64,000 bases of DNA, taken from positions 1,350,077 through 1,414,076 of the forward strand of contig OW818670.1 of the NCBI GenBank assembly GCA_942493215.1. Reading direction: 5' to 3'. The first letter of the stretch is position 1; each line of letters begins with the position of its first letter. This DNA comes from an uncultured Bacillota bacterium. Lineage in GTDB: Bacteria; Bacillota_I; Bacilli_A; RF39; UBA660. The notes under the pieces were generated by a model. The model had not been told where the DNA came from. It did not search any database and saw only the letters and a list, made by a program, of their open reading frames with translations. Position numbers and translations under genes: made by a program. Shown here one piece after another: positions 1,717 through 54,165 of the stretch.

Positions 1717-3782
1717 CCACTGGTATAAGCATTATAATGCTTGCCAAGAGAGGTTTCAGCAGCTGTACTACTAATAATGGATATCCAATCATTATTATTT
1801 AATGAAACAGATAATGTATGATCATTATAAGTTCTGCCATCATTATAATAATGCCATATAGCCACTTCATCTAAATTATAAACTTTCCCTAAATCAACTG
1901 TAACACATTGTAACCCCGTATATGAAGCTTGTGCATATATCGTTGATGTAATATCACCATCCGTAATATTTCCATAAGGTCGGCTTTCTGCTTCAGTAGA
2001 AGTACCAGTTACTGTCTTACCATAAGCAACATTAGTACCATTAATAATAGCTTGCAATTCAACCCATTGGTTAGAAGTAGCTTTTGAAGAACCATTAATA
2101 CAATCCTTTATATATCTTACACCATTAAGATTACTATTTTGCTTATATAAATTTTTACCAATGTAATTAATAATAGCCTTTCCACTGCCATCACTTACAC
2201 CAGCCTGCATTTGTCCATTAAGAAAATAATTATTAGAATAATGTTTAGTATTATTAGAATGTGTTATTGAAGTAGCGTTAGTAATAGCATTCACACCGGC
2301 ATACCCCGATATAAAGGATGAACCGCCGCCGCCACCAATTATAAAACAATCTCCATTGGCTGTTTTTGTGCCACCTACACCACCATAATATCCACCGCCA
2401 CCACCATTATTACCACCGCAATATGAAATAGAAGCATCACCACCAGGACCACCTATGCCAAAGTTATAACCAGCTAGCTGTGTCCCACCTATCCCACCAT
2501 TAGTTGGATAAAGACTATTAGTACTTCCCTTTAAACCAAGTAATCCTCCGGCTTCACCATTACCGTTAGGTGTGTCATTAATAGAATTGGCTCCGCCACC
2601 ACCAGCCACCATAATACGGCTTTTTAAAGATGCTGCATCATTCCAATTACCATTCACTAAACGAATATCCGTAGCTCCGCCACCAGAACTGCCAAAATAA
2701 TAATAGTAAGTTATGGTTTCTGGAGTATATGGCCCACCTGCAGCGCCACCCATACCACCACCATTGAATGTAGCTAAAGCTAAATTCGATGTTTCAGATG
2801 TAGACTTTAAATTACCAGTAATACCAAGTTGACCAACATATACATATATTGAAGTACCCTCTGTTAAGTAAACATTACCTGAAGTATACCCACCGTTGCC
2901 ACCAGAATCCGCATCTCCACCACCTTTAGCACCCCATAATTCCACTTTATAATATCCGTCAATAGGAGCAGTAAAAGTTTGCACATCACCTGTATAGTTG
3001 TAAGTATAAGTTCCCACTACGGTAACCTTACGAGTCATAGTCGCAACTGTTTCGCTACCTTCAACAATAGTATATGTAATATTGTAGCTTTGCCCTAAAA
3101 CATCAGTCGGTGTACTAGTAACTGTTACTGATGAATCGTTATAAACAACACTACCGTTAGCATAATAAACAAAATAACCAGGATCTACATAACTACTTCC
3201 TTGTGACTTTGTATCATCAACAGAACCATTAAGATATATAGCTTTTGTACCATCTGTTTGTTCGTTAGAATTAATTCCCGCAATCGAAGAAGTTCTACTA
3301 TCATATTGATAAACAATATTAACACCAAAATTTTTACCTTCAATATTAGCACTTGTTATGGGTATACCAATAGTAATAATGGAATCATTTCTACCTACTT
3401 TCACATCAGTTGCCGTAGTGCCTATCATTATAATGTCTCCAAAAGAACTATTAGTCACTAATTTAGTAGTATAATCACCCCATGTAAATAAATTATTAGT
3501 TTTATCAATTTGTAATTTACTAGTTGAACTATCATCAAAAACAAAGAATAAGCAATTATCACCACAAGTCATAGCAAGCTTAATTTTCTTTTGAAATAAT
3601 GTTGTATTAATTTTATTACTTATCATCGCTTGTTTATATAATAACTCCGTTTTATATCCAGAATTAATATATAAATCTTTTAAGGTAACAACTATCTCAA
3701 ATAAGAAAGCAAAAACAACCATTGCTAAGGCAAATGATGTTATCAGTTCAACAACTGTAAAACCCTTATTATTCTTTAACAT
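1713..3782 (-). CDS. Prepilin-type protein with DUF5011-like Ig domain, glycine-rich (ALK/LTK-like) domain and C-terminal discoidin/F5-8C-like domain
   Basis: Class III signal KG|FTVVE plus hydrophobic helix; IYLNGS...YVDPGY Ig; YTGDVQTF...VELWGAKGG...GGGGATDIR...GGGGSSFISG; VTVDLGKVYNLDEVAIWHYY.DGRTY. Start placed at ATG 3782 (AGGAG SD). Confidence 0.8.
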   Translation of the reverse strand: MLKNNKGFTVVELITSFALAMVVFAFLFEIVVTLKDLYINSGYKTELLYKQAMISNKINTTLFQKKIKLAMTCGDNCLFFVFDDSSTSKLQIDKTNNLFTWGDYTTKLVTNSSFGDIIMIGTTATDVKVGRNDSIITIGIPITSANIEGKNFGVNIVYQYDSRTSSIAGINSNEQTDGTKAIYLNGSVDDTKSQGSSYVDPGYFVYYANGSVVYNDSSVTVTSTPTDVLGQSYNITYTIVEGSETVATMTRKVTVVGTYTYNYTGDVQTFTAPIDGYYKVELWGAKGGGDADSGGNGGYTSGNVYLTEGTSIYVYVGQLGITGNLKSTSETSNLALATFNGGGMGGAAGGPYTPETITYYYYFGSSGGGATDIRLVNGNWNDAASLKSRIMVAGGGGANSINDTPNGNGEAGGLLGLKGSTNSLYPTNGGIGGTQLAGYNFGIGGPGGDASISYCGGNNGGGGGYYGGVGGTKTANGDCFIIGGGGGSSFISGYAGVNAITNATSITHSNNTKHYSNNYFLNGQMQAGVSDGSGKAIINYIGKNLYKQNSNLNGVRYIKDCINGSSKATSNQWVELQAIINGTNVAYGKTVTGTSTEAESRPYGNITDGDITSTIYAQASYTGLQCVTVDLGKVYNLDEVAIWHYYNDGRTYNDHTLSVSLNNNDWISIISSTAAETSLGKHYNAYTSG

Positions 3783-3827
3783 AGATATCAACTCCTAAAC
3801 ATTTGTTTTTTAAATATTTATAATTTT

Positions 3828-5528
3828 TTAGCTTCCTGATATAACAGTGCGAAATGAAACATTGCCAAGAGCTTGACCACTACCCATCGAGAAATCGTAT
3901 GCACCAGCAAATAAACCATCTGAATCGCTACCACCACGATGAAACCATGATGACGTGTTATATAAAAAGTATGAGGTATCATTATACCAATTTTTTGTTT
4001 CTTTTGTTGCATCACCAGTTATGGCTCGATTATAAGCGGCTGCATCAGCATATGTTGTTCCATAATTATATTTATTAATATATTTAGCATCTAAGGCATC
4101 TAATTGACTCTGCGTAAATCCAGATGAAGCAATACCAAGATTTGTATTTGATGCACTATTATATTGTGCACCCATAACATCCTCATTTCCTCCACCTGAC
4201 ATATCAAATATTCCAGTAATATTACCGGTTGTACTTTGAGGATATGATGTTACCTTGCCATATTCAATTTCACAAGATGATGTATTGTTTGCATTACTAA
4301 CACTTGCACCGCATCCAGTTTTAGGAGTACTATTGTTATTTAATCTTATTTCATCATTAATTCCGTATTTAGAACGTGATAAATAAGCAACTACACCCCA
4401 TTCCGTATTTTTAATCATTCTTGATTCATAATTAAGACCATAAGTCGATTTATCAGCATTATTGGTAATACTACCATCAGAATTCAATGTTCTATTTCCA
4501 AATTTTAAAGACGTCGAAAACTGGGTAACTACATTTTGATTTATTAAGCTGGAGATATTCGGTTTTATCGTTGGTGTTGCTGCACTACCTGTTGTTTCAA
4601 ACTTTCCGACCCAAAGACCATTTAATTCTTTATTATCAAAATTAAATGCTGGATGAATTATATAATTTGAAGTAGGAACCGTTTTTTCTTTAGAAATAAA
4701 ATTAACTTTTATTTCGACTGCTGTAGATGAAGTTATAGTTTCATATTCATATCTTGGAATCCACACAAAATATGCTAATATCTTATCTTCAGGTATAGCA
4801 TTGCCATTACTATAGTTACCTCTAACATCACTACTTACTAAGACCATATTAGCCCATTGTTTATTATTATAATCATACCATTTACTAAAGATATTGGCTT
4901 TTCTTACTACTCCATTATTATCAATAACTACTGGTACCATCCCGCTACTTAATACTGGATCGGCTCCATTTAATGAAGCATCAACATACAAATCAGCTGA
5001 ACCATTAACTTTTAATGTTGCATAAGTATTATCAGTAAATTCAACAATTAAACGATAGTTATTAGTATCACTATCTGTTTTTATGCCCAAAATATAGTTT
5101 TTCATTCCTTCAGAAAAACCACTTACAGGCGTATTATTAAGATAGGCTTTTAAATCACCTAAATCATCTTTAGTAAAAATAACTTTATTAATATTATCAG
5201 TACCACTATAATTATAAATATTTAATCCTGAAAATAAATTAGTACAATAATTTGTTTCTGTAAAGTAAGAATCAGGACACATTGTTAAATCAATATACGA
5301 ATTACCACCTAAATTAGCAACAATACTATCAAAACCATCACTTAATATGTAACGACGAATATTATTAGCTGCATATAAGGAATTTACGGTATTATATTTA
5401 AAAGACAGTTCATAGTTAGATCTGATTTTTTGAAATTGGGTAAACATAAATAGTAAAACACCAATTACAAAAACGGATACAACCAGTGTTTCTACTAACA
5501 TAAATCCCCGATTAAATATTTTTTTCAT
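3828..5528 (-). CDS. Prepilin-type protein with C-terminal FGE-sulfatase/C-type-lectin-fold domain
   Basis: Class III signal RG|FMLVE; WIPRY, WVGKFE, EWGVVAY, STTGNITGIFDMSGG, FHRGG and terminal SFR motifs. Confidence 0.75.
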   Translation of the reverse strand: MKKIFNRGFMLVETLVVSVFVIGVLLFMFTQFQKIRSNYELSFKYNTVNSLYAANNIRRYILSDGFDSIVANLGGNSYIDLTMCPDSYFTETNYCTNLFSGLNIYNYSGTDNINKVIFTKDDLGDLKAYLNNTPVSGFSEGMKNYILGIKTDSDTNNYRLIVEFTDNTYATLKVNGSADLYVDASLNGADPVLSSGMVPVVIDNNGVVRKANIFSKWYDYNNKQWANMVLVSSDVRGNYSNGNAIPEDKILAYFVWIPRYEYETITSSTAVEIKVNFISKEKTVPTSNYIIHPAFNFDNKELNGLWVGKFETTGSAATPTIKPNISSLINQNVVTQFSTSLKFGNRTLNSDGSITNNADKSTYGLNYESRMIKNTEWGVVAYLSRSKYGINDEIRLNNNSTPKTGCGASVSNANNTSSCEIEYGKVTSYPQSTTGNITGIFDMSGGGNEDVMGAQYNSASNTNLGIASSGFTQSQLDALDAKYINKYNYGTTYADAAAYNRAITGDATKETKNWYNDTSYFLYNTSSWFHRGGSDSDGLFAGAYDFSMGSGQALGNVSFRTVISGS

Positions 5529-5627: not shown

Positions 5628-6959
5628 ATGATAAGAAAATATGACTTCGATCGAATGCCTATAGTCGATATTGTTAATGCCATAATGGTAGATGCAGCAA
5701 AACGTGGAGCTAGTGATATTCACTTTGATCCACAAGATGAACTTTTAAAAGTAAGAATTCGTATAGATGGTGTATTAATGGATTATTCTGAAGTTCCTAA
5801 TATTTCGAAACGTAATCTTATCACTCGTATAAAAATTTTAGCTGGTATGAATATTACTGAATCACGTTTACCACAAGATGGAGCCATAAAACAAACTCTA
5901 GAAAACATTTCTATGGATATGCGTGTTTCCAGCTTGCCTACTAATCTAGGTGAAAAGATTGTTATTCGTATTCTTGACTACTCTATGAGTTTAAGTGGTC
6001 TAGAACATTTAGGATTTAGTGAAACAAATTACCATAAAGTATTAGAGATGATTAGTGCTCCTAACGGTATTATTTTAGTAACCGGTGCAACTGGTTCAGG
6101 TAAATCAACGACTGTATACTCTATTCTTCAAAGATTAAATCGTGAAGAAACAAATATTATAACGGTTGAGGATCCTATCGAAATGGAAATAGCTGGTGTT
6201 AACCAAGTTCAAATAAATACTGATATTGGTTTAACCTTTGCAACAACCTTACGTTCTATTTTACGTCAGGACCCTAATATCATTATGATCGGGGAAATTC
6301 GTGATAATGAAACAGCAAAAATTGCCGTTCGTGCTTCTATTACTGGACATTTAGTTTTATCAACACTACATACCAATGATACCTTAACATCTATTGAAAG
6401 ATTATTAGATATGGAAGTTGAACGTTACTTGCTTGCTAGTTCATTAACAGGTATAATATCACAAAAATTAGCTCGTCGGTTATGTACTAAATGTCGTTCA
6501 AAACGGCCTACTACTGATTATGAGAAAAATCTATTTCATTCTATTTTAAATAGAGATGTACCAGAGATATTCTCTAGTGTTGGTTGTGAAGAATGTGGCA
6601 ACGGTTATAAAGGTCGTATTGCAATTCATGAAGTACTATTAATTAATGATCAAATAAGAGAAGCAATCAGTAATAACGTTAATAAAGAAGTACTTAGAAA
6701 AATGGTTGAAAATACTGATTATGTTACCCTCCTCCAAGATGGATTAGAAAAAGTTATTAATGGTTCCACTACAGTTGAAGAAATTCTTAAATTAGTAATG
6801 CTTGAAAGCGAAGATGCGGAAATTGAAGCTGAAATGATGAAAGACCGTGAAAAGCTAGAAGAAGATAAAGATAAACCTTCAACATATATATTTAATGAGG
6901 AAAATAATAATCCTGTCGGGCAAAAACCAACTATTACTACTCCACCACTCAACGATTAA
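5628..6959 (+). CDS. pilB: Type IV pilus/T2SS assembly ATPase (PilB/GspE family), N-terminally short
   Basis: ASDIHFDP, RLPQDG, Walker A GATGSGKS, TVEDPIE, LRQDPNIIMIGEIRD, TGHLVLSTLH and two CxxC zinc motifs. Confidence 0.92.
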   Translation: MIRKYDFDRMPIVDIVNAIMVDAAKRGASDIHFDPQDELLKVRIRIDGVLMDYSEVPNISKRNLITRIKILAGMNITESRLPQDGAIKQTLENISMDMRVSSLPTNLGEKIVIRILDYSMSLSGLEHLGFSETNYHKVLEMISAPNGIILVTGATGSGKSTTVYSILQRLNREETNIITVEDPIEMEIAGVNQVQINTDIGLTFATTLRSILRQDPNIIMIGEIRDNETAKIAVRASITGHLVLSTLHTNDTLTSIERLLDMEVERYLLASSLTGIISQKLARRLCTKCRSKRPTTDYEKNLFHSILNRDVPEIFSSVGCEECGNGYKGRIAIHEVLLINDQIREAISNNVNKEVLRKMVENTDYVTLLQDGLEKVINGSTTVEEILKLVMLESEDAEIEAEMMKDREKLEEDKDKPSTYIFNEENNNPVGQKPTITTPPLND

Positions 6960-6991
6960 AAAAATAAGTTCAATAATGAACTTATTTTTTT
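6958..6991. terminator. Bidirectional intrinsic terminator between convergent pilB and pilD
   Basis: AAAAAATAAGTTCA-ATAA-TGAACTTATTTTTT perfect inverted repeat with A/T tracts on both sides. Confidence 0.85.
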
Positions 6992-7751
6992 ATGAAATAT
7001 AATTAATAATATCCATAAAATGGATCTGGGATAATAAAATTATTATACTAGCTATACCTAAGAAAGGTCCAAAAGGAATAATATGTTCCTTTTTTTTCAG
7101 CATAATGATAAATGCTATAGGTAACCCAATAATAGAAGCTAAAAAAATATTAATTATAGCTAATTGATAACCCAAAATCATTCCAATAATAAACATTAAT
7201 TTAATATCGCCACCACCCATTGATTCCTTCTTAAATAAAAAATCACCGGTTAGTTTGAGTAAATACATAATGATAAAAGCAACTGCCCCTTCTGCTAGCA
7301 TAAATAGGCCTGTTTTAATACCTTCGGATATAATAATCACTATCCATAATAATGACCCAAAAACAATTAATATTTCATCAGGTATAATAAGATATAGATA
7401 ATCACTAATAATTATTATAAGAATCATTGAAATAAATAATAGACTAATTAATAATTGCCATGAAAAGCCAAAAATTAAGTATGATAAAGCAAATAGGCAA
7501 CCAGTTGCACATTCAAATAAAGGATAAAAGCCTGATATTTTGGTATGACAATTACGACATTTCCCTTTTTGAAAAATAAAAGATAAAATAGGAATTAATT
7601 CCCATGGCGATAATTTATGATTACATTTTGGACAATGGGATGCGGGGCGGATTAACGATTCATGTTTAGGTAAACGATAACCCACCACATTATAAAATGA
7701 CCCAAAAACACAACCAAAGACAAAGAACACAACTATATAATATATTTCCAT
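6990..7751 (-). CDS. pilD: Prepilin peptidase/N-methyltransferase (PilD/ComC)
   Basis: GSFYNVVGYRLP, SHCPKC...GKCRNC zinc site, ISDYLY, MGGGDIKL, IPFGPFL. Confidence 0.93.
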   Translation of the reverse strand: MEIYYIVVFFVFGCVFGSFYNVVGYRLPKHESLIRPASHCPKCNHKLSPWELIPILSFIFQKGKCRNCHTKISGFYPLFECATGCLFALSYLIFGFSWQLLISLLFISMILIIIISDYLYLIIPDEILIVFGSLLWIVIIISEGIKTGLFMLAEGAVAFIIMYLLKLTGDFLFKKESMGGGDIKLMFIIGMILGYQLAIINIFLASIIGLPIAFIIMLKKKEHIIPFGPFLGIASIIILLSQIHFMDIINYIS

Positions 7752-7760
7752 ATAACACCT

Positions 7761-10256
7761 CTAATAATTACCATAACTTCCTATTGAAGAATACATATTA
7801 AACATCGGGATAATAACAGCCATGATAATTACGCCAACAATTGCTGTTAAAAAGACAATAAGAACGGGTTCAATAAGAGCTTTTAATCTTGATACCGAAT
7901 TTCGATGCAATTCTTGATAATAATCAGAAACTTTACCCATCATTTCTGGTAATTGTCCTGTTTTTTCACCTGTAACTAACATCTCATAAGCCGGAATAGG
8001 AAAAGCCCAAGAATTTTCAAATGATAATGAAATACGTTCACCACGATTTAAGTTCTCAATGGTTTTAGCAATCAATACTTTATATATTTCATTATTAGTA
8101 ACACGATTTAAGATATCCATACTATCTGTTATAAAAACATTATGTGATAATAATGATGAAAATGTTTTAGTAAACATTGTTACTTCATTATAAATCATAA
8201 TATTTCCCATAACTGGAAAATGCATACCCATCCATTGAAACATATACCTAAATAATTTTACATTAGTATATAAGAATCTTAATAATAATATAAATGCTAC
8301 CATTCCTATACCTAAATATATAATATTATCTTGCATAAAAGCACTAACTTTTGTAATAAAGACGGTGAATGCCGGAATAGATGCATTATCCATTGTTTTA
8401 TAAATATCTACAAATTTAGGAACAACATAAACCATTATAAAGCTCAATACACCAACCGCCATTATTAAGACAATCGTTGGATACGTAAGAGCCGAGATCA
8501 TTTGTTTTCTTGTTTGCTCTGTTTCGGTATAGTATTCAACCATATCATCTAATGTTTCGGGTAACTCACCAGTCATTTCCGCTGTTTTAACCATATTAAT
8601 CAATAATCTTGGGAAAGCATTACCTTGTTTAGTTAAAGCAATACTGAAATTTTCACCCATTGTTAAATCATAAATGATTATCTTAAAAATTAAAGAATAT
8701 TTGCCTTTTTGATATTGTTTTTCTAATATTTTTAAAGATTCAACTAAAGGTAACCCGGCCTTTATATAAGTTGATAATTGTGTTAGCATAAATATCAAGT
8801 CGGATGTCTTAATCTTACGATGAGCCATAGAAGAACCCTTATGTAATGTTCTAATAGCAAGGGAAGTCTTTATACTATATACTTCATATCCTTCACTAAT
8901 TAAAAAAGAATGGACTTCAACAATAGAAAAAGCATCAAAATAACCTTTTATAACCCTTCCAGTACTAATATCACGAACAATATATTCGTATAATATTTTG
9001 TCTTTACTCTTTATGGCATCAATACCTTCATAATCAATAACCATTTGCCGTTCTGGTATTTTGCTTTCAGTTGCAAAAGCCTGAGCAATTGGTGAAAAAC
9101 GAGCTTCTTCTTTTAAACGTTGTTTAATACGTTCTGGTATTTTATTAATCGCTTCAATCCAACGTTTAATTTTTGTTTCAAATGTTTCCTTTTCAACTTT
9201 AGCAAATACGACACTACGATCACGCTTTTCACGTTCACGCTGTCTGGCACGTTCCTCACGCGTTTTTATTTGTTCATAACGTAATTTATCAAGCTCTTTT
9301 TTCTCTAAGAACCTTTGAACAGCTTTTTCTTCTTGCTTTATTTTAGAAGCCCGCATCTGCTTAACAATAAAGTTTTGTAATGGTCCACTAATAAAGTTGA
9401 ATATCATTCTTAATGGTAACATAACACCTAGAAAGGCATATCTAATAAAACGATATAGAAGATAGAAGACAAATCCTATTCCCAAGAAGAAATACTTAAC
9501 AAAATGATATAAGCCAGTTGAAGTAGATAAGAATATTTTTGGTTGATATTTCTTTCTAACTTTAGGTTGCATTTTAATATAATTAATTTGAGGATGGTGT
9601 TGTTTATTTCTATTATATTTAGTTACCTTCTTTTTCTTTTTATTGCTTATCTTTTTAACAGGAACAGTAACTTTTTTAGCCGCTATAGCGTGTTTCTTAT
9701 GTTTAATCTTATTAGTTTCCATTGCTTTTTTTAATGGTCTAAAAATTAAACCAAATACTTTTTGTAAGCCAAGATAGAAGTATTTACATAATAAAACGAT
9801 ACCATGAATAATAAGACGAAATAAGTAAATTATTGTGTATTTAAAAATAAAATAAACACCTAAACATATGTAGGTAAATAATTTACTTAAATAGTGGAAT
9901 ACAAATGAACATCCCTTTGCTATATATTTAAATAAATAAGCAAGAACTTTCCCAATATAATGAAAAAATACATATATACCCTTGCATCCATAAAGAAATA
10001 TTTTCATAATAAAATCGAGTATCGTATGAATACCACGATAAAAATAGCTACTTAAAAACAATACAGTATGACCTAATGCATATACTATAAAGTGTAAACC
10101 CTTTAAACTATTAGTAAGTAAAACTTTGTAAATAATCCACACAAAAAAACAAGTACCAATACTAGCATACTTCAAAAGTATTATTGGTGTTTTGATAATA
10201 TAAAACAACGTTTTGTACATAAAAATAAATGGCAACCAGATTGCTCGTTTATTCAT
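7761..10256 (-). CDS. pilC: Type IV pilus platform protein PilC (T2SS F family) with ~420-aa N-terminal extension
   Basis: From about aa 422: YEYIVRD...KGYFDA, QLSTYIKAGLPL, AEMTGELPETL, ALTYP, GEKTGQLPEM, LIEP. Residues 1-420 are not PilC-like. Confidence 0.88.
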   Translation of the reverse strand: MNKRAIWLPFIFMYKTLFYIIKTPIILLKYASIGTCFFVWIIYKVLLTNSLKGLHFIVYALGHTVLFLSSYFYRGIHTILDFIMKIFLYGCKGIYVFFHYIGKVLAYLFKYIAKGCSFVFHYLSKLFTYICLGVYFIFKYTIIYLFRLIIHGIVLLCKYFYLGLQKVFGLIFRPLKKAMETNKIKHKKHAIAAKKVTVPVKKISNKKKKKVTKYNRNKQHHPQINYIKMQPKVRKKYQPKIFLSTSTGLYHFVKYFFLGIGFVFYLLYRFIRYAFLGVMLPLRMIFNFISGPLQNFIVKQMRASKIKQEEKAVQRFLEKKELDKLRYEQIKTREERARQREREKRDRSVVFAKVEKETFETKIKRWIEAINKIPERIKQRLKEEARFSPIAQAFATESKIPERQMVIDYEGIDAIKSKDKILYEYIVRDISTGRVIKGYFDAFSIVEVHSFLISEGYEVYSIKTSLAIRTLHKGSSMAHRKIKTSDLIFMLTQLSTYIKAGLPLVESLKILEKQYQKGKYSLIFKIIIYDLTMGENFSIALTKQGNAFPRLLINMVKTAEMTGELPETLDDMVEYYTETEQTRKQMISALTYPTIVLIMAVGVLSFIMVYVVPKFVDIYKTMDNASIPAFTVFITKVSAFMQDNIIYLGIGMVAFILLLRFLYTNVKLFRYMFQWMGMHFPVMGNIMIYNEVTMFTKTFSSLLSHNVFITDSMDILNRVTNNEIYKVLIAKTIENLNRGERISLSFENSWAFPIPAYEMLVTGEKTGQLPEMMGKVSDYYQELHRNSVSRLKALIEPVLIVFLTAIVGVIIMAVIIPMFNMYSSIGSYGNY

Positions 10257-36476: not shown

Positions 36477-36499
36477 AAAAAAAGCATTATATGCTTTTT
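36477..36499 (-). terminator. Terminator after the DUF4956 gene
   Basis: AAAAAGCAT-TAT-ATGCTTTTT. Confidence 0.65.
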
Positions 36500-37163: not shown

Positions 37164-37172
37164 AAATCCTCC

Positions 37173-40755: not shown

Positions 40756-40780
40756 ATCAATGCACTTCCTAATTATATCT

Positions 40781-40809
40781 ATCTTATCAAAATAGTATGC
40801 TTTTTTCAA
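40781..40809 (-). promoter_or_regulatory. sigmaA-like promoter of the CotH-VTC-DUF4956 operon
   Basis: TTGAAA, 17 bp spacer, TAAGAT with extended -10 TG. Confidence 0.45.
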
Positions 40810-44461: not shown

Positions 44462-46039
44462 TTAATATATTTGGATTAGAAAAACATGACCAGTATTATT
44501 AACAGCAAATAAATGATTATTGTCTACTATCTTAATATCAATAATATTCTTAATAGTAAGTGATAAATCTAGTTTACTATTATATATACTAAGAACACTA
44601 TCAACATTTATTTTGTAATATGATTTACCAAATAATTGTAGCCCAGAAATAACCTTATTTTCTATTAATTTACTGTTTACCATATCAATGGTCAACATTG
44701 TACTATAAAAGGTTCTTTTATCACTAGCTGACCCGCCGTTGTTACCTTCTGAATAAATGGCTTCAACATCATAATAATTATTGTTATATTGATTTTTTCT
44801 TAATTGAATATCAACACTAGTCGCATTATTATTTGTAATTCCCATTGTTCCGATAAGCTGATTATTACTATTATAAAAATTATAATTATTATTGTTTTTT
44901 TGATATAGAATTACCATATTATCTATATCATCAATTAATAATTCTCTATTTTCATATTTTTGTATACCACCATTATTTTTAATAATACTAGTTGTACTAG
45001 AATTACCTATATATAAATTATTATTAATGTCTAAATATATTTTATAGTCTGATATGTCGCCATTAAACTCAGCAACTACTTTATGATCTTTCTCAATCAT
45101 AATCTTATTATCTTTTACTAATACATTATACTCACCATATGGAACATACCACAAGTAATTATCTTTTATTTTTGCACCAGTAATATTATAAACCGAATAT
45201 AAATTGTTTTTTGATAAAGCCACTTCATTTAAATCTTTATTAATAATAGCATAATCATAAATAACATCAAATATTATCTTTCCATTTCTATCAATAAGAC
45301 CGTATTTATTATTACTATTAATTGCAATAAAATATTTATCACTTTGGATTTCAATTAAATTAAAGCCTGATTCTGATACTTCTTCAAAATATTTACTTTG
45401 ATTTAATTTTAAACTATTTAAAGAAATTAGCTTTTCCATCTTATCATCAAGCAAATATATACTATTTATGCCATCATTTGATACGTTAATACCATAATAT
45501 TTTTTATCTAGTATCAATAAATTAACACTATCAACTGTTAATAATACTTTACCAGTGTTAACATCATATATTAAGTATTTATTACCTATTTTAGTAATAT
45601 AGTAATTGGATATATCATAATCACAATTATAAGTATCATCAAACAGTTTGACACCATCTAAATATAAATATTTTGAATTTTTATCTTTATCATCCTTATA
45701 TACTCGTAACATATTACTCATCATCGGATTACCATCAAAGCTAGTTATTTGATTCTTATTTCTTATTAAATAATAGTTTTTGTCAATACCTTTTAAATAA
45801 TAATTACCATATAATACTTTAAATTCTATCTTTGAACTATCTATTTGTTTAAAATTATTATCAAGTAAGAAGTAATCTTTACCACTTCTTACTTGATTTA
45901 TACCATCCATATTACTAATCAGTTGATCATATTCCTTGATAATTTTTGCTCCCGATTTATTATAAAAAATAATGGACAAAACTACACTAACAACTAGAAT
46001 AAAAACTATGATCATAATATATGTTTTTTTATCTTTCAA
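44462..46039 (-). CDS. Membrane-anchored beta-rich protein with a WG-like repeat
   Basis: TTG start after GGAGG; N-terminal TM; NNKYGLIDRNGKIIFDVIYD; many short beta-strand-like repeats. Confidence 0.6.
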   Translation of the reverse strand: MKDKKTYIMIIVFILVVSVVLSIIFYNKSGAKIIKEYDQLISNMDGINQVRSGKDYFLLDNNFKQIDSSKIEFKVLYGNYYLKGIDKNYYLIRNKNQITSFDGNPMMSNMLRVYKDDKDKNSKYLYLDGVKLFDDTYNCDYDISNYYITKIGNKYLIYDVNTGKVLLTVDSVNLLILDKKYYGINVSNDGINSIYLLDDKMEKLISLNSLKLNQSKYFEEVSESGFNLIEIQSDKYFIAINSNNKYGLIDRNGKIIFDVIYDYAIINKDLNEVALSKNNLYSVYNITGAKIKDNYLWYVPYGEYNVLVKDNKIMIEKDHKVVAEFNGDISDYKIYLDINNNLYIGNSSTTSIIKNNGGIQKYENRELLIDDIDNMVILYQKNNNNYNFYNSNNQLIGTMGITNNNATSVDIQLRKNQYNNNYYDVEAIYSEGNNGGSASDKRTFYSTMLTIDMVNSKLIENKVISGLQLFGKSYYKINVDSVLSIYNSKLDLSLTIKNIIDIKIVDNNHLFAVNNTGHVFLIQIY

Positions 46040-46067
46040 AATAATACACCTCCATATAGGCATTTAA

Positions 46068-49000
46068 TTAATGTGTACATTGGGTTGAAGCAGTTACATC
46101 CGCATGCCAATATTGAATTCCATAATAGGCTCCATTACTACCTTTTACCGAACAATTAGTATCGGTATAGGCACTAGTATGCCAATCAACCACTATTCCT
46201 GGGCATGGACAACTACTTTGGCCACCACTTTGGCCTTCACAATAATATGGGACTTCAGCAGCAAGGTGGTTAAAACAACGATAGTAACCATTCGATTCAG
46301 CACTAGAACCCGAAACACCATCTATTCTACTAGATAATGTAAATACACCATTGGTAGAATTAAAAGACAAGTTTCTGTAATACGTATGGGTTGCAACGCC
46401 TTGACACCACCACCATGAATCAGTTATATTGCTCCATTCATATATCTGCACACAATAAACGGCATACAAAGTTGTATCCGATCCCGTATAATAGTCGCCG
46501 GGATGGTATATTGCTGCCCCACCAGCCGTGGTTGACCAACCGGTAAATATATAACCAGTTCTAGTTGGCGCAACCGAACTTAAGTAAGTCCCTGATCCGG
46601 TATAGGTAGTAGTAGCTGGTGCACCAGTACCACTCCCTACTGCATAATATATATAATGAAGTTGAATAAATTGAAAAGCATTACTAGTAGTAATAGCCGT
46701 ATTACCTGCACCATCAACCGCCTTTACCCATAAATAATAGGTTACAGTACTATTTATGGCTTTCGTTAATGTTTGACCGCTAGTGAATGTTGTTGCAAAA
46801 GTTGGTTGAACAGTATTAGAAGTACTCCACTCATACTGTAAAGAGCTTATATTACTACCGCCACTATCATTTACCGTAACAGTACTACTTTGTGATTGTG
46901 TTTGAGTAGGATTGCCATTAGGACTATAGGTAACTGTAGGAGCTGTTTTATCCATTTTAACCGTTTGATTGGCAGGACAGGTAAAACTGTTACCAGCCGT
47001 GTCATTAACATTGCCTGGTGACTCCGTTGTCGAATTGGTATTAACACTATAAACTTTTGTAATATTACCTACGCAACCACTTCCACCCGTATCACTACAA
47101 GTTCCGGTTAGTGTCAGATTAGTATTGCGCCATGTAGCGCTTCCACCACTTGATGTACAAGTAGGAGCTGTTTTATCTATTTTAACCGTTTGATTAGCCG
47201 AACAAGTAACACTGTTACCAGCATTATCACTGACTGATCCTGGCGACTCCGTTGTTGAATTGGTATTAGCACTATAAGCTTTTGTAACATTACCTACGCA
47301 ACCACTACCACCCGTATCACTACAGGTTCCCGTTATAGTTAAATCCGTATTACGCCATGTAGCACTCCCACCACTTGGAGTGCAAGTAGGAGCTGTTTTA
47401 TCTATTTTAACCGTTTGATTAGCGGGACAGGTAAAACTGTTACCAGCCGTGTCATTAACATTGCCTGGTGACTCCGTTGTCGAATTGGTATTAACACTAT
47501 AAGCCTTTGTAACATTAGCTACACAGCCACTACCACCCGTATCACTACAGGTTCCGGTTAGTGTTAGATTAGTATTGCGCCAAGTGGCACTTCCACCACT
47601 TGATGCACAAGTAGGTACCGTTTTATCAATCCTTACCGTTTGATTAGCCGAACAAGTAACACTATTACCAGCATTATCACTGACTGATCCTGGCGACTCC
47701 GTTGTTGAATTAATCTCGTTTGTATAACTTTTTGTTATATTACTAACACAACCACTGCCACCATCACTACAAGTTCCAGTTAATGTCAAGGTGGTATTAC
47801 GCCAAGTACTACTTCCACCGCTTGATGCACAAGTAGGAGCTGTTTTATCAATCCTTACCGTTTGATTAGCTGAACAAGTAACACTATTACCAGCATTATC
47901 ACTAACACTTCCAGGCGATTCGGTTGTTGAATTAATCTCATTTGTATAATTTTTTGTTATATTACCTGCACAACCACTACCACCATCACTACAAGTTCCG
48001 GTTAATGTTAAAGTGGTATTACGCCAAGTACTACTTCCACCGCTTGATGCACAAGTAGGAGCTGTTTTATCAATTCTTACCGTTTGATTAGCTGAACAAG
48101 TAACACTATTACCAGCATTATCACTAACTGATCCCGGTGACTCCGTTGTTGAATTAATTTCATTTGTATAATTTTTCGTTATATTACCTGCACAACCACT
48201 ACCACCATCACTACAAGTTCCAGTTAATGTCAAGGTGGTATTACGCCAAGTGGCACTTCCACCGCTTGATGCACAAGTAGGTGCCGTTTTATCAATCCTT
48301 ACCGTTTGATTAGCCGAACAAGTAACACTATTACCAGCATTATCACTAACTGATCCTGGTGACTCGGTTGTTGAATTAATTTCATTTGTATAATTTTTTG
48401 TTATATTACTAACACAACCACTACCACCATCACTACAAGTTCCAGTTAAGGTTAAAGTGGTATTGCGCCATGTAGCACTTCCACCACTTGATGCACAAGT
48501 AGGTGCCGTTTTATCAATTTTTACAGTCTGATTAGCTGGACATACAGTACTATTACCAGCATTATCACTAACTGATCCCGGTGACTCGGTTGTTGAATTA
48601 ATTTCATTTGCATAAATTTTGATTACAGTAGCTGCCGCACATAAACTATCACCATCACTACAAGTTCCGGTTAATGTTAAATCTGTACTACGCCAAGTAC
48701 TACTTCCTCCAGTTGATGCACAAGTAGGTGCTGTCTTATCAATCTTTATATTATGCAAAACTGATATAGTACTAACATGTCCAACATTATCAATAGAACG
48801 AACATAATACGTTTGATTTTCTTCATTAGTAACAGTACGAGGATTACTCATATCATACCAATTAGTTGTATCGTTAGAATATTGATACTTATTAATACCT
48901 GAATCTATATCTGTCGAATATGGTATTTGCACAACTGAATGATTAGTCCAAACACCACTTGTATAAATAGATCCATTTATAGAATCAAGTTTTAATGTCA

Positions 49001-50654
49001 CAGTTGGTGTACTTGGATCAGTATTATCAACCTTCGTTACATTAACATTACACGTCCCAATTCGACTAACACCATCTTTGACATAAGCCGTATAAGTACC
49101 ATTATTTGTTACATTAAAAGTTGTTGAACTTGTCGTGGCCGTATAATCACTATCACCCGGCTTTTTAATAGCAACAACTCCGCTTTCACTATCATTACCT
49201 GTTATTGTTAATGTAGCATTGGTTACCCAAGTAGTAGGATTTCCCGTTATATTACAAGTTGGTGAATTCTTATCAATTTTAGTAACTGTAACACTACAAG
49301 TATTGGTATTACCCGCTACATCTTTAACACTTGCTATATAAGTTCCATTATCTGTAACATTTAAGGTTGTTGAAGAAAGGGCTAAATACTCACTATTCCC
49401 TGGTAATTTTATTCCGGCTACCCCACTATCACTATCATTACCTGTTACAGTTAGAGTAGCATCTGTTACCCAGCTAGTTGGATTTCCTATTATATTACAA
49501 GTAGGTAATGTCTTATCAATATTTGTAATAGCGTAATTAACAATACTACTTTCTTGACCTTCATCATCACGGGCTTGCATTTTGATATTCTGATTTGTAG
49601 AATAATTTCTACTTGGGCTAGATTGCCATGTTGACCCGCCATCAAAGGAATATGGTTGACTAGCAAGTGGATTATTATGAACTGGTAAGATAGTGACAAC
49701 TACATCTTGATTAGTCCATAATGAAGTATTTAATTTATAATTAATAAATATTTCTTTACCAATATTTTTAACTACGGCCATTATAATTAAACGACCAATA
49801 TTATTACTACTATCTTTAGCTTCATATATTAACTCATAGTCACCTTCAACATTCGTATTAACATTACCATCAATTGTTGCAGTAATTGCTTCCCCACTAT
49901 TATCGCTAACTGCAGCATCTGGTATATTAAAAGTACTACCCTTTTTTACAATCATCTTGTAATTAATATTAATACCATTAACCATTAAAGTAGGCGCTAA
50001 AGTATCATGAACAATAACATTACGACTAACACTTGCTGATGAACCATTAGACATATCTGTTGCAACATAAGTTATTATATATGTACTTAACTCGTTGGTT
50101 TTTATGTCTGATGCTGGTTTACCATTCTTCATAATAAATGTTGTTATACTTGCTATTTGATTACCATCTTTATTTCGAGCTTGTACTCCTTTTTCATTAT
50201 AACCACCATTTATTTCTACATATTCAGTAGGACTACCATTTAATATTATAAAAGGAGCTTCATTATCAAATCCCTGATCACTACTGCTAGCATTTTCAAT
50301 ATTATAAAGATAAGAATTATTTTTCTTAGTAACAACAACTAAAACATTATCCCCAAATCTCTGTTCTGTTTTAGGATTGGTAAGATCTTTTTTTACAAAG
50401 CCTTTTGATTTTAGCTCACCTAACGTAATAGTAATAGTATCACCATTATTATGTGGCATCAAATATAAGTTAGCACTACCCCATGCTACGGCACCTTTTT
50501 TAATGCTTTCAATCTGAACATCATATAATTTTTCTTTTTGACTTCTAATTGTTCCCGTTACAATAGGAATAGCGATAGCTAGCATTAAAGACAATAATGC
50601 TATAACTACAACTAATTCAACTACGGTCATACCTATTTTATTTTTCTTTTTCAT
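46068..50654 (-). CDS. Giant prepilin-type adhesin (~1528 aa): Ig-like stalk, eight Cys repeats, InlB B-repeat, Cys-rich tip
   Basis: Class III signal IG|MTVVE; two DUF5011-like domains; DKxxP Ig repeats; PTRTGYIFTGWST...TTLYAVY Listeria/Bacteroides repeat; terminal domain with 8 Cys. Confidence 0.85.
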   Translation of the reverse strand: MKKKNKIGMTVVELVVVIALLSLMLAIAIPIVTGTIRSQKEKLYDVQIESIKKGAVAWGSANLYLMPHNNGDTITITLGELKSKGFVKKDLTNPKTEQRFGDNVLVVVTKKNNSYLYNIENASSSDQGFDNEAPFIILNGSPTEYVEINGGYNEKGVQARNKDGNQIASITTFIMKNGKPASDIKTNELSTYIITYVATDMSNGSSASVSRNVIVHDTLAPTLMVNGININYKMIVKKGSTFNIPDAAVSDNSGEAITATIDGNVNTNVEGDYELIYEAKDSSNNIGRLIIMAVVKNIGKEIFINYKLNTSLWTNQDVVVTILPVHNNPLASQPYSFDGGSTWQSSPSRNYSTNQNIKMQARDDEGQESSIVNYAITNIDKTLPTCNIIGNPTSWVTDATLTVTGNDSDSGVAGIKLPGNSEYLALSSTTLNVTDNGTYIASVKDVAGNTNTCSVTVTKIDKNSPTCNITGNPTTWVTNATLTITGNDSESGVVAIKKPGDSDYTATTSSTTFNVTNNGTYTAYVKDGVSRIGTCNVNVTKVDNTDPSTPTVTLKLDSINGSIYTSGVWTNHSVVQIPYSTDIDSGINKYQYSNDTTNWYDMSNPRTVTNEENQTYYVRSIDNVGHVSTISVLHNIKIDKTAPTCASTGGSSTWRSTDLTLTGTCSDGDSLCAAATVIKIYANEINSTTESPGSVSDNAGNSTVCPANQTVKIDKTAPTCASSGGSATWRNTTLTLTGTCSDGGSGCVSNITKNYTNEINSTTESPGSVSDNAGNSVTCSANQTVRIDKTAPTCASSGGSATWRNTTLTLTGTCSDGGSGCAGNITKNYTNEINSTTESPGSVSDNAGNSVTCSANQTVRIDKTAPTCASSGGSSTWRNTTLTLTGTCSDGGSGCAGNITKNYTNEINSTTESPGSVSDNAGNSVTCSANQTVRIDKTAPTCASSGGSSTWRNTTLTLTGTCSDGGSGCVSNITKSYTNEINSTTESPGSVSDNAGNSVTCSANQTVRIDKTVPTCASSGGSATWRNTNLTLTGTCSDTGGSGCVANVTKAYSVNTNSTTESPGNVNDTAGNSFTCPANQTVKIDKTAPTCTPSGGSATWRNTDLTITGTCSDTGGSGCVGNVTKAYSANTNSTTESPGSVSDNAGNSVTCSANQTVKIDKTAPTCTSSGGSATWRNTNLTLTGTCSDTGGSGCVGNITKVYSVNTNSTTESPGNVNDTAGNSFTCPANQTVKMDKTAPTVTYSPNGNPTQTQSQSSTVTVNDSGGSNISSLQYEWSTSNTVQPTFATTFTSGQTLTKAINSTVTYYLWVKAVDGAGNTAITTSNAFQFIQLHYIYYAVGSGTGAPATTTYTGSGTYLSSVAPTRTGYIFTGWSTTAGGAAIYHPGDYYTGSDTTLYAVYCVQIYEWSNITDSWWWCQGVATHTYYRNLSFNSTNGVFTLSSRIDGVSGSSAESNGYYRCFNHLAAEVPYYCEGQSGGQSSCPCPGIVVDWHTSAYTDTNCSVKGSNGAYYGIQYWHADVTASTQCTH
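46956..48743 (-). repeat. Intragenic tandem array, 8 units of 222-225 bp (74-75 aa)
   Basis: Unit IDKTAPTC.SSGGS.TWRNT.LTLTGTCSD(T)GGSGC..N.TK.Y....NSTTESPG.V.D.AGNS.TC.ANQTV(K/R); 1788 bp = 596 aa; 4 Cys per unit. Confidence 0.95.
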
Positions 50655-50732
50655 CACCATTCTCCTTGCAACTATATTTAATAATCTTGTTTATAATATC
50701 AAAGATATTATAAGAAGACTTAGGATGGCATT

Positions 50733-50739: not shown

Positions 50740-50885
50740 CTATCTACTAATAAGACATATATTATAATCATAATTATCTTATATATTTATTATATCAGAA
50801 TATTATAGGTCTTTTCAATCATTATCGTTTTTTTTATTATGTATAATTGTCGACAGAAAGTGATAACACTCATTTTTGTTCTTAT

Positions 50886-50954: not shown

Positions 50955-53900
50955 CTATGGTTGTATTGTTAGTTTAGCATAACCACTACCAGTTCGACCA
51001 GTCATTGTTCCACCTGATGGATTTGGCATAGAAGCATTACCAGCAGTTGTTGAACCACTCGTAACACCACCTGTATAGGAAGAACCACCACCACCGCCAT
51101 AGTAGTTAGTTGCAGCAGCTCCACCGCCCCAGTAACCGCCACCACCGCCACCTCGGCTTGTAGTACTACCATTACCACCAGTTCCAGATAATCCACCTGA
51201 ACTACCTCCGGCAGATTGAGTACCTCCGGCACCACCGGAACCAGCAGCTGCGATACCAGATGTACCGCCACCAGCACCGCCATAATAATTGGTATAACGG
51301 CCGCCAGAACCGCCGCCACCACCAGCAACAATTATACGATTAGATAAAGCTGTACCACCAGAACGAACATCAGTAGCACCACCTCCGGTACCACATCTAT
51401 AAGTAGAGGTTGTATTACCGTAGGCACTACCTCCTCCATTAAAACCGCCGGCCTGACTCACTGCCGTGGTGCCAGTTATTGCACCAGCTCCACCTACGTA
51501 AATATATATGCTAGTACCAGATGTTAAACTTTTATAACCAGTTGCATATCCGCCTTTACCACCAATTGTACCACTAACAGTAGAACTTCCACCTTCAGCA
51601 CCCCAAACTTGAATTAAATAATTGCCAGTAAGAGGAACATTAAATGTTTGAGAAGCACCTGTATAAGCAAATGTATATACACTAGCAATGACGGTAACTG
51701 TTCTAGTACCTGTTGCCGTATTAGTAGCCGAATCGGTCGCAGTATAAGTTAAAGTATAAGTTCCCGCGGTAGGACTAACTGTACCACTAACGGAAATAGT
51801 AGGAGTTATTCCACTATTATCGGTAGCACTTGCTCCCGTCATATTATTAAATGCTGCCACTTGATTATCTGCTAATGTAATAGCAGCAGGAGTAGTTAAT
51901 ACTGGTACTGTTTTATCAACTTTAACCGTTTGATCAGCTGGACAAGTAACACTATTACCAGCATTATCACTTACATTTCCAGGCGATTCCGTTGTTGAGT
52001 TAGTGAAAGTACTATATGTTTTGGTAGCATTACCAACACAACCACTATCACCTGTATCACTACACGTTCCTGTTAATGTTAAATCGGTTTTTACCCAACT
52101 TGCATTTCCTCCACTTGAGGTACAAGTTGGTGCTGACTTATCAACCTTAATACTATGAGAAGTTGAATTATTACTAACATTACCGACATTATCTATAGCC
52201 CGTACATAATAAGTTAGATTTTCTCCAGTAGTAATACTACGTGGATTACTCATATCATACCAAGTGGTTGTATCATTAGAGTATTGATATTTATTAATAC
52301 CTGAATCAGCATCCGTTGAAGAAGGTATTTGGACAACTGTATGATTAGTCCATGTACCACTGGTATAAGCTGATCCACCCGTTGTATCAAGTTTTAATGA
52401 TACTGTTGGTGTACTTGGACTAGTAGTATCTATTTTAGTTACATTAACATCACATGTACCAATCCGATCAACTGCATCTTTTACATAGGCTGTATAAGTA
52501 CCATTACTTGTTACATTAAAGGTCGTACTAGTAGTTGCGATATAATCACTATCCCCTGGCTTTTTTATGCCAACAACTCCACTTTGAGTATCACCACCCG
52601 TTATTGTTAATGTAGCACTTGTTACCCAACTAGTTGGATTACCAGTTATTGTACAAGTTGGTGAAGCATCATCAATCTTTGTTACATTAACACTACAAGT
52701 ATTAGTGTTACCGGCTCCATCTTTAACACTAGCTGTATATTGTCCATTAGTAGTAACATTAAATGTTGTTGATGAAACCGATAAATAATCACTACCACCT
52801 GGTAACATTATTCCATCCAAACCACTTTCACTATCACTACCAGTTACCGTTAATGTTGCACTATCTGCCCAGTTAGTAGGATTATCAGTTATATTACAAG
52901 ACGGTAAGTTTTTATCAATATTAGTAATATTATAACTAACAACATCACTTTTTAACTGATAACGGTCTCGGGCTTGCATTCTAACAGTCTGATTACTAGA
53001 AAAAGCTTTGCTGGCACCAGATTGCCATGTTAACCCACCGTCAAAGGAATATGCCTGACTAGCAAGCGGAGTATCATTAACAGGTGCAATAGTCATAGTA
53101 ACATCTTGATTAGTCCATAATGAAGTACTAGCACTATAATTTATATAAATATTATTAACAATACTTTTTACCAGTATAGTTAAAACTAAACGACCAATAT
53201 TACTATTTTTGTCTTTAGCTTCATATGTTAGATCATAGCTTCCTTCAACACTAGTATTAACCGTTCCTTTAATTGTTGGGGTAATATTTTGATCACTATT
53301 ATCATCAACAACCGCCGTTGGATTACTAAAAGTACTATCTTTTTTAACTATCATTGTTTGATTAGCATTAATACCATTGACCATTAAAATAGGTGCGATA
53401 GTATCACGTACAATCACATTACGATTAACACTTGATGATTTACCATTAGATATATCGGTTGCTACATAGGTTATAATATAGGTACCAGCACTACTTGTTG
53501 ATATTGATTCCGTTTTACCATTTTTTTTAGTAAAAGTTGTTATACTTGTTATCTGATTACCATCTTTATCTCGAGCCTGAACTCCTTTTTCAACATAAGT
53601 ACCATTTATTTCAGTATACTCCGTAGCACTTCCATTTAATATTATATAAGGGGCATCTTTATCAAATGTCTGATCACTATTACTGATATTTTCAACATTA
53701 TAAAGATAAGTATTATTCTTTTTAGTAACTACTACTAAAACATTATCAGCAAATTTTTGCTCTGTTTTAGGATTAGTAATATCCTTTTCAACATAACCTT
53801 TAGATTTTAATTCGCCTAACATAACCGATATACTGTCACCCTCATCGGCTGGCAATAAATATAAATTGGCACTACCCCACGCTATAGCGCCTTTTTTTAT

Positions 53901-54050
53901 ATTTTCAATCTGAACATTATATAAATCTTTCTTCTGATTTTTTATAGCATTGTTTAATGTCGGAATAACTATTGCCATCATTAAAGCAATCAAAGATATT
54001 ACAACAATCATCTCAACCGTTGTCATACCACTATTATTCTCTTTAAGCAT
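50955..54050 (-). CDS. Large prepilin-type adhesin (~1031 aa), paralogue of 46068-50654, ending in a glycine-rich (ALK/LTK-like) domain
   Basis: Class III signal SG|MTTVE; same N-terminal ~630 aa architecture; one Cys repeat unit; YTGASQTF...QVWGAEGG...GGGATDVR...GGGGSSY. Confidence 0.85.
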   Translation of the reverse strand: MLKENNSGMTTVEMIVVISLIALMMAIVIPTLNNAIKNQKKDLYNVQIENIKKGAIAWGSANLYLLPADEGDSISVMLGELKSKGYVEKDITNPKTEQKFADNVLVVVTKKNNTYLYNVENISNSDQTFDKDAPYIILNGSATEYTEINGTYVEKGVQARDKDGNQITSITTFTKKNGKTESISTSSAGTYIITYVATDISNGKSSSVNRNVIVRDTIAPILMVNGINANQTMIVKKDSTFSNPTAVVDDNSDQNITPTIKGTVNTSVEGSYDLTYEAKDKNSNIGRLVLTILVKSIVNNIYINYSASTSLWTNQDVTMTIAPVNDTPLASQAYSFDGGLTWQSGASKAFSSNQTVRMQARDRYQLKSDVVSYNITNIDKNLPSCNITDNPTNWADSATLTVTGSDSESGLDGIMLPGGSDYLSVSSTTFNVTTNGQYTASVKDGAGNTNTCSVNVTKIDDASPTCTITGNPTSWVTSATLTITGGDTQSGVVGIKKPGDSDYIATTSTTFNVTSNGTYTAYVKDAVDRIGTCDVNVTKIDTTSPSTPTVSLKLDTTGGSAYTSGTWTNHTVVQIPSSTDADSGINKYQYSNDTTTWYDMSNPRSITTGENLTYYVRAIDNVGNVSNNSTSHSIKVDKSAPTCTSSGGNASWVKTDLTLTGTCSDTGDSGCVGNATKTYSTFTNSTTESPGNVSDNAGNSVTCPADQTVKVDKTVPVLTTPAAITLADNQVAAFNNMTGASATDNSGITPTISVSGTVSPTAGTYTLTYTATDSATNTATGTRTVTVIASVYTFAYTGASQTFNVPLTGNYLIQVWGAEGGSSTVSGTIGGKGGYATGYKSLTSGTSIYIYVGGAGAITGTTAVSQAGGFNGGGSAYGNTTSTYRCGTGGGATDVRSGGTALSNRIIVAGGGGGSGGRYTNYYGGAGGGTSGIAAAGSGGAGGTQSAGGSSGGLSGTGGNGSTTSRGGGGGGYWGGGAAATNYYGGGGGSSYTGGVTSGSTTAGNASMPNPSGGTMTGRTGSGYAKLTIQP
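51921..52145 (-). repeat. Single copy of the 75-aa Cys repeat found eight times in the neighbouring paralogue
   Basis: VDKSAPTCTSSGGNASWVKTDLTLTGTCSDTGDSGCVGN...NSTTESPGNVSDNAGNSVTCPADQTVK. Confidence 0.9.
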
Positions 54051-54165
54051 TACACTCACCTCAAAACTAAATACCATATTTGCTAATATTGTTAAAATAT
54101 AAAAAAAGGGATGGTCTAAAAAAATGAATAAATCACTAAATAAACCACCCCGTTAAATTATAATT

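Follow-up and report, generated by a model that had tools for sequence, protein, structure and literature searches.

How type IV filaments, simple as they are, acquire so many functions remains to be explained, and modular pilins are one proposed answer. In Streptococcus sanguinis, the class III signal peptide and small pilin module of PilB and PilC are followed by a von Willebrand factor A (vWA) module and a lectin module, respectively, and modular pilins are presumed to be adhesins located at the filament tip (PMC8179133, PMC9934059). CofB of enterotoxigenic Escherichia coli and TcpB of Vibrio cholerae, which are type IVb pilins from diderm bacteria and act at the filament tip, similarly carry β-rich domains (two extra domains) on a linker behind their pilin module (PMC8179133). 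In sortase pili and adhesin stalks, tandem immunoglobulin (Ig)-like domains have their first and last strands locked by isopeptide bonds, or by disulfides in Actinomyces FimP (PMC3485203). Lastly, ComGC of Bacillus subtilis, a Bacillota type IV pilin of ~100 amino acids (aa), needs one extracytoplasmic disulfide, which depends on BdbDC according to a passage of PMC10246001 that cites Meima 2002. Here, we analyzed a 64-kb stretch of contig OW818670.1 of an uncultured Bacillota bacterium (assembly GCA_942493215.1), hereafter the window, and a gene in it whose product is, with a probability that we put at about 0.6, a giant modular minor type IV pilin.

Like PilB and PilC, the 1528-aa product of this gene (the target) starts with a class III signal peptide and a small pilin module, to which functional modules foreign to pilins are appended on the C-terminal side; the host is likewise monoderm. 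The target is about twice as long as the longest modular pilin of the 2021 InterPro survey (860 aa; PMC8179133), and it has ~14 modules versus the one or two of modular pilins such as S. sanguinis PilB. Unlike the S. sanguinis proteins, it possesses an extended stalk of repeats and 44 Cys, contains neither vWA nor lectin modules, and is known from sequence alone. The combination of a pilin module with β-rich domains on a linker is reminiscent of CofB and TcpB, which lack the tandem array and the Cys staples and to which no sequence similarity of the target was detected. The tandem Ig-like stalk in turn recalls sortase pili, although these are anchored and polymerized through sortase and LPXTG while the target would rely on its pilin helix, the cross-links would be putative disulfides instead of isopeptides, and the sequences are unrelated; by analogy, the presumed purpose of the locked domains, mechanical and proteolytic stability of a thin fiber, could apply to the target as well. 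Compared with the single disulfide of ComGC, the target would contain ~22, and the window search revealed no Bdb-type gene. Each of the elements (pilins, Ig-like stalks, and disulfide staples) was known before on its own, and nothing is overturned; the target is a further variant of the modular pilin design and not a one-off, since its four-Cys domain is the mark of an extensive, as yet undescribed family of giant pilins.

The assignment is carried by a chain that links a class III leader, pilus machinery in the same window, ~14 consecutive β-sandwich domains behind the pilin module (eight of them four-Cys units), a conserved Cys pattern, and a paralog with another tip. The open reading frame (ORF) runs uninterrupted over 46068..50660 of the minus strand, with its frame intact across 4.6 kb, and the plus strand at 46068-50654 is crowded with stops. 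The likely start is the ATG at 50654, preceded by AAGGAG at a distance of 7 nucleotides (nt), and the database copy of the protein (P0001), a singleton from a contig of 1.49 Mb, is 100% identical to the window protein. The gap of 294 nt before the gene holds a promoter-like site and, ahead of it and just past the stop codon of the upstream paralog, a stem-loop with a T-run that was identified by eye; the pattern scan did not list the stem-loop. The N-terminus (MKKKNKIG followed by MTVVEL) has Gly at -1, Glu at +5, and then ~21 hydrophobic residues past the cleavage site. Indeed, MKKKNKIG followed by MTVVELVVVIALLSLMLAIAIPIV shows the short basic leader ending in Gly, the Glu at +5, and the ~20 hydrophobic residues of a class III signal peptide. 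In profile comparisons with solved pilins, the N-terminus matched α1-N of geopilin (E value, 1e-5) and, weakly, that of PilA, PilE1, and MshA (E values, 0.011 to 0.05). Weak N_methyl, GspG, and ComGC matches fall on residues 6 to 56, and the GspG, ComGC, and ComGE models matched residues 10 to 56 below cut-off.

Raynaud et al. (2021; PMC8179133) call a pilin modular if its N-terminal pilin motif is joined by one or more domains that are not specific to pilus biology, as is the case here. Behind this N-terminus, two known families score above their Pfam gathering cut-offs: Bact_surface_Ig-like (PF16403) in two stretches (E value, 1.5e-13) and Flg_new (PF09479; E value, 1.3e-8; 35.3 bits versus a cut-off of 27). 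Residues 1341 to 1403 also match the InlB B-repeat structure 2y5p (E value, 2.3e-5). The domain boundaries in the N-terminal third were placed by eye from alignments (Table 1). The first-pass annotation had read this gene as a type IV pilin of exceptional length (~1528 aa), which the ORF, the leader, and the matches of the N-terminal helix bear out; every part that it had listed (pilin N-terminus, two DUF5011-like domains, Ig-like domains, eight units, an InlB B-repeat, and a Cys-rich end) is present. The C-terminal domain is an orphan: it matched no family, the C-terminal 199 aa retrieved no match in the homolog search, and the 127-aa tip found only itself by local phmmer among all 290 collected proteins. 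AlphaFold2 run without an alignment gave a predicted local distance difference test score (pLDDT) of 30 for these 199 aa, too low for a usable model.

The genes for the prepilin peptidase, the assembly ATPase, and the platform protein all lie at 1.7 to 10.3 kb in the window, together with those of two further large pilin-like proteins adjoining the ATPase gene. The ATPase and the platform protein scored higher against GspE/PilB and GspF/PilC than against ComGA/ComGB, all of these scores being below the equivalog cut-offs, and a competence (Com) pilus identity was rejected on these grounds as unsupported. At 831 aa, the platform protein is about twice the usual size, its extension consisting of hydrophobic segments and a Lys-rich stretch that match no family.

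The upstream paralog shares the pilin head, the DUF5011-like domains, the two-Cys domains, and the first four-Cys unit with the target. Past its residue 719, it has no further units; a Bact_surface_Ig-like domain follows and then, as an alternative tip, an ALK/LTK glycine-rich domain, so that the target differs from it by seven extra units and another tip. Since head, proximal stalk, and one unit are shared and the tip is different, the pair suggests a common stalk with exchangeable tips. The ALK_LTK_GRD domain that ends the paralog (E value, 2.5e-27) also occurs in the 692-aa pilin-like protein encoded 47 kb away.

In the scheme that we propose, the prepilin peptidase of the window would cleave the leader, and the hydrophobic α1 helix would then insert the protein into a type IV filament, most likely at or near the tip because of the protein's bulk. 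The Ig-like domains would form a thin rod, several tens of nanometers long, that holds the Flg_new and orphan Cys-rich domains away from the filament as a binding head. Within the units, the link between the first and fourth Cys (C1-C4) would tie the first strand to the F/G region and C2-C3 would shut the DxxGSG loop, both staples rendering the stalk nearly inextensible and protease resistant under the pulling forces that act on pili. The stalk would have been lengthened in the target by unit amplification, with the tips remaining exchangeable.

Several points weigh against this scheme. All pilin family models remain under their cut-offs, as does N_methyl, which scores 16.2 bits versus a Pfam cut-off of 21.2; the motif scan of the 64 kb found no small major pilin and the Pfam scans found no retraction ATPase in the window; the target and paralog genes lie 36 to 44 kb from the machinery genes; and a binding function for the tip is a guess, made with neither a homolog nor a usable model. 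Some of these points would suit a membrane-anchored surface fibril instead of a pilus subunit, in which the class III leader would serve for export and then anchoring, and the rod would cross the wall and display the tip, a design with a likeness to the archaeal class III signal-peptide sugar-binding proteins. The four class III signal peptides found in the window all belong to large proteins (566 to 1528 aa), the giant pilin genes stand apart from the machinery genes in the relatives as well, and a gene for a membrane-anchored partner is coupled downstream. We nonetheless consider such a fibril rather unlikely, since this region of the genome retains a full set of ATPase, platform, and peptidase genes, the pilin module past the helix is conserved with the relatives, as filament packing would require, and the modular pilins that have been characterized enter filaments (PMC8179133). 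The downstream partner, a 533-aa protein rich in Asn, Lys, and Tyr that has a single membrane segment at its N-terminus, a weak WG-repeat match, and no family, may be cotranscribed with the pilin gene; its gene was not found beside the pilin genes of the relatives.

Each of the eight units (74 to 75 aa) has Cys at unit positions 7, 27, 34/35, and 66/67. When two units were scanned alone, no relevant Pfam match appeared even at an E value of ≤10, and the NCBIfam matches, at the "DKTAP" boundary (Ig_like_ice and OmpL47-type), were all short and far under threshold. The unit stays below the curated cut-offs of Big_13, DUF7743, HYR, Big_5, and Bact_surface_Ig-like in Pfam and of Ig_like_ice and OmpL47-type in NCBIfam, and a profile of 15 units found no match among PDB sequences at an E value of ≤10. 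An iterated hidden Markov model seeded with the eight units collected 790 domains in 72 homologs, which are large repetitive surface proteins, some with signal peptides at the head and one pair named Frankiales, whose repeats have the common frame D-x-T-x-P-T ... W ... D-x-x-S-G ... D-x-A-G-N. Profile-profile alignment with hhalign related the four-Cys units to these "DxTxPT...DxAGN" repeats with a probability of 97.5% (E value, 4.9e-12); the widespread repeats themselves match DUF7743, Big_13, Big_5, and HYR only below threshold. By these alignments, the four-Cys unit is a compact subtype, with two Cys pairs, of an Ig-like domain that is very widespread.

The comparison with the widespread repeat of giant surface proteins ("DxTxPT...W.N...C.DxxSG...C...DxAGN") shows what sets this subtype apart. 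The frame motifs are the same, and in both the inner Cys pair flanks the DxxSG loop. The four-Cys unit is shorter (74 to 75 aa versus ~76 to 95 aa), adds the outer C1-C4 pair, closes the inner loop right after SG (C-x7-C versus C-x9-11-C), and, unlike the widespread repeat, is almost confined to proteins with pilin N-termini. AlphaFold2 modeling of units 7 and 8, from a 30-row alignment of tandem pairs, yielded an all-β model (pLDDT, 95.6; predicted template modeling score, 0.80) in which the first unit has seven strands and the second follows a matching pattern. A Foldseek search of this model against the PDB returned only tandem-Ig (antibody) chains, none at an E value of ≤1e-3. The model thus points to an Ig-like fold that lacks a close solved relative. 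The first-pass annotation had described the 74-aa unit as a new, compact Ig-like spacer that it did not recognize as a named family: the unit is indeed without a name in Pfam, NCBIfam, and the PDB, and the two modeled units are predicted β-sandwiches, but the unit is not unique, being both homologous to a widespread domain and recurrent.

The target contains 2.9% Cys, versus 0.95% in the other ORFs of the window. All 44 Cys lie downstream of residue 386, hence outside the N-terminal hydrophobic helix, in line with the earlier count and with its claim that all are extracellular. In the 15-unit alignment, for which the target, its paralog, P0019, P0044, P0048, and P0060 are named as sources, the four Cys are invariant in 15/15 units (given for five proteins), the units being 32 to 45% identical to those of the window. 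Among the 790 aligned homologous domains, all four Cys are present in 15 and C1 plus C4 only in 17, all from pilin-headed proteins; the partner of C2 is C3 in 12 domains and, in 105 of the 122 remaining cases, a Cys 9 to 19 residues downstream. Few Cys are orphans. In addition, the number of Cys in the mature part is even in 90 of 108 pilin-headed relatives (binomial P = 1e-12), a bias that Daniels et al. used as a signature to infer disulfide systems (PMC2823432). Since Cys are gained and lost in these two pairs, the pattern indicates two disulfides per unit, C1-C4 and C2-C3, rather than a four-Cys metal site; two disulfides are also what the first-pass annotation had proposed for the unit. 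In a 75-residue unit, 61 residues would lie inside the putative C1-C4 link, and an oxidized unit could hardly be stretched.

The remaining points against the stapled pilin concern the cysteines. Exported proteins of Bacillota generally avoid Cys (PMC2823432). The first-pass annotation had supposed that the stalk requires a thiol-oxidase pathway, a need that is so far hypothetical. By Pfam, neither DsbA/BdbD, DsbB, nor VKOR was found in the 64-kb window (ORFs of at least 100 aa, except two of 102 to 137 aa that overlap longer genes); a CxxC scan of window ORFs of at least 70 aa found no thioredoxin-like protein, CxxC being present only in zinc-ribbon and radical-SAM proteins, and none of five related loci has a thioredoxin-like CxxC protein. 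The four Cys might then bind a metal, such as a structural Zn, or stay reduced in an anaerobic habitat. The pilin PilJ of Clostridioides difficile has a structural Zn site. The host is probably a gut anaerobe: relatives come from human-gut metagenome-assembled genomes (MAGs), and the topoisomerase IV B subunit of the window (ParE) is 80 to 84% identical to proteins from metagenome assemblies, the closest named ones being from "Bacilli bacterium" MAGs. Despite this setting, we regard bound metal or free thiols as improbable. Because two Cys cannot make a tetrahedral site, the homologous domains with only C1 and C4 or only C2 and C3 argue that the pairs behave as independent two-Cys units; the bias toward even Cys counts is strong; and ComGC, in the account of PMC10246001, is a precedent for a BdbDC-dependent disulfide-bonded pilin in Bacillota.

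Tandem Repeats Finder describes the array as 8.1 copies of a 222-nt period at 46936-48748 (85% matches). Although the source is evidently a metagenome-type assembly and short reads struggle with tandem 222-nt repeats, it is highly improbable that assembly produced the array or its copy number as an artifact, or that the gene is decaying, because the reading frame is unbroken, the units are 72 to 93% identical in DNA (the longest exact word common to two of them being 78 nt), synonymous changes predominate among the most similar units, 2 to 5 (11 to 14 synonymous versus 1 to 4 nonsynonymous codon differences), and proteins from independent assemblies carry 5 to 11 such units. The array, as judged from this divergence, would consist of old, individually selected copies rather than a collapsed or inflated repeat, and the artifact that the first-pass annotation had raised as a danger to its claim finds no support.

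The four-Cys unit reaches well beyond the window. Searched against 1.84 billion cluster representatives, the 15-unit profile matched 3001 proteins at an E value of ≤1e-3 and 273 at ≤1e-30. Among the 148 best-scoring proteins, 121 hold at least one four-Cys unit, with a maximum of 11 in P0073. Of these carriers, 95 start with a class III signal peptide and 4 begin inside the pilin helix, the other 22 being mostly evident fragments, with about four having different N-termini; two carriers were named at source [quoted passage not shown] Nearly all come from metagenome assemblies, in clusters of one to four members. They reach ~1750 aa (2464 aa for a two-Cys relative), and 73 pilin-headed relatives are longer than the 860 aa mentioned above. 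The relatives carry 1 to 11 units and then unrelated tails, mostly Cys rich and unnamed. By these profile matches, pilin-headed proteins with the four-Cys form make up hundreds of 50%-identity clusters. The unit thus behaves as a stalk module, shared by a large and so far undescribed group of giant modular pilins whose ends vary.

At the level of genomes, a contig scan with the whole target protein found no relative, and one with the N-terminal alignment found three loci. "Firmicutes bacterium CAG:884" encodes a relative of 1479 aa with 46 Cys, and an "uncultured Bacilli" MAG from Hadza gut encodes two in tandem with 31 to 32 Cys. The genes of these relatives adjoin housekeeping genes, not pilus machinery, and two metagenomic relatives have similar contexts. 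The literature offered nothing specific on giant Cys-rich pilins or on pili in CAG-884/RFN20. We tentatively propose, as a possibility that we would not yet favor, that the four-Cys unit is an unrecognized, essentially pilin-specific stalk module, carried by giant modular pilins that are rich in disulfides and number in the hundreds among uncultured Bacillota with small genomes and a probably anaerobic life. If true, extracytoplasmic oxidative folding would take place in a group thought to avoid exported cysteines, and the function of a type IV filament would be set by exchangeable tips held tens of nanometers off the fiber. The locus and its relatives would stretch the modular pilin idea, so far limited to one or two added modules, to long stalks with covalent staples and exchangeable tips in uncultured gut bacteria. 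The 15-unit alignment and the 3001 profile matches suffice to define and name the domain family, C1-C4 and C2-C3 pairing is a clear prediction, and the system would allow one to test if anaerobic Bacillota with small genomes can oxidize exported proteins.

TABLE 1 Features of the target gene, the window, and the relatives (window positions unless another locus is named)
Feature	Position	Strand	Remarks
Modular type IV pilin-like protein, complete coding sequence	46068..50654	minus	1528 aa; stop codon 46068-46070
Promoter-like TTGAAA-18-TATAAT with extended TG	50789..50818	minus	Consensus match only
Class III signal peptide leader MKKKNKIG, terminal Gly	50631..50654	minus	N_methyl PF07963, E value 0.0075, sub-threshold
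Pilin module, residues 9-128: hydrophobic α1-N with Glu +5, then segment conserved with P0044, L001, L002	50271..50630	minus	Profile matches to solved pilins
Two Bact_surface_Ig-like (former DUF5011) domains, residues ~129-297	49764..50270	minus	Pfam; boundaries by eye
Ig-like domain with Asp-box-like SFDGGSTWQ motif, residues ~298-379	49518..49763	minus	Weak BNR match
Two 81-82 aa Ig-like domains with outer Cys pair only (C1, C4), residues 380-542	49029..49517	minus	
Cys-free Ig-like domain, residues 543-638	48741..49028	minus	Weak OmpL47-type match
Eight 74-75 aa four-Cys Ig-like units, residues 639-1234	46953..48740	minus	
Cys-free Ig-like domain, residues 1235-1329	46668..46952	minus	Same superfamily as units
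Flg_new / Listeria-Bacteroides repeat (InlB B-repeat type), residues ~1330-1400	46455..46667	minus	
Orphan C-terminal domain, 128 aa	46071..46454	minus	Trp/Tyr rich; 8/44 Cys if boundary Cys1401 is counted
Upstream paralog	50955..54077	minus	Likely start 54050; 69% identical to target over first 719 aa
Downstream gene, 533-aa predicted membrane-anchored protein	44462..46063	minus	Starts 4 nt past pilin stop
Prepilin peptidase (A24_N_bact + Peptidase_A24)	6990..7751	minus	Enzyme expected to cleave leader
T2SSE-family assembly ATPase	5628..6959	plus	Closest to GspE/PilB, below equivalog cut-offs
T2SSF-family platform protein	7761..10256	minus	420-aa N-terminal extension
Two large pilin-like proteins with class III signal peptides	1713..5528	minus	
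692-aa pilin-like protein	1713-3791	minus	ALK/LTK-type glycine-rich domain and F5/8 type C domain
566-aa pilin-like protein	3828-5528	minus	No family
Relatives with extremely Cys-rich ~130-aa tail	L001 9983-12040 and 12431-14467; L002 9998-14437; P0019, P0044, P0060, P0087, P0107		

The tails of the relatives are diverse. Many end in a stretch of ~130 aa with 16 to 24 Cys and recurring "CGC..W" motifs; this tail matches no Pfam family and bears no relation to the tip of the window protein. The tails of P0082, P0093, and P0111 have W..W..C..[ST]CG.G-like segments, and those of P0082 and P0111 gave weak, sub-threshold matches to the thrombospondin type 1 repeat (E values, 0.004 to 0.009). In P0073, residues ~1270 to 1407 form Trp/Tyr/Gly-rich repeats that look cell-wall- or choline-binding-like by eye, with no Pfam match. 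In L004 (2485-14398), three giant genes stand in tandem, encoding proteins of 1070 aa (with Flg_new repeats), 1370 aa, and 1465 aa (the pilin P0048), and a block of glycosyltransferase genes follows, which may hint at glycosylation of the Ser/Thr/Asn-rich proteins.

The window has 29% G+C and encodes SpoIIGA, sporulation sigma factors, a PASTA kinase, and ComEA/ComEC. A minus-strand cluster of the window at 36498-40809 includes the gene for a CotH kinase protein of 986 aa, which also contains three lamin-tail domains, Fn3_assoc, and CHB_HEX_C, along with genes for a VTC-domain protein and a DUF4956 protein.

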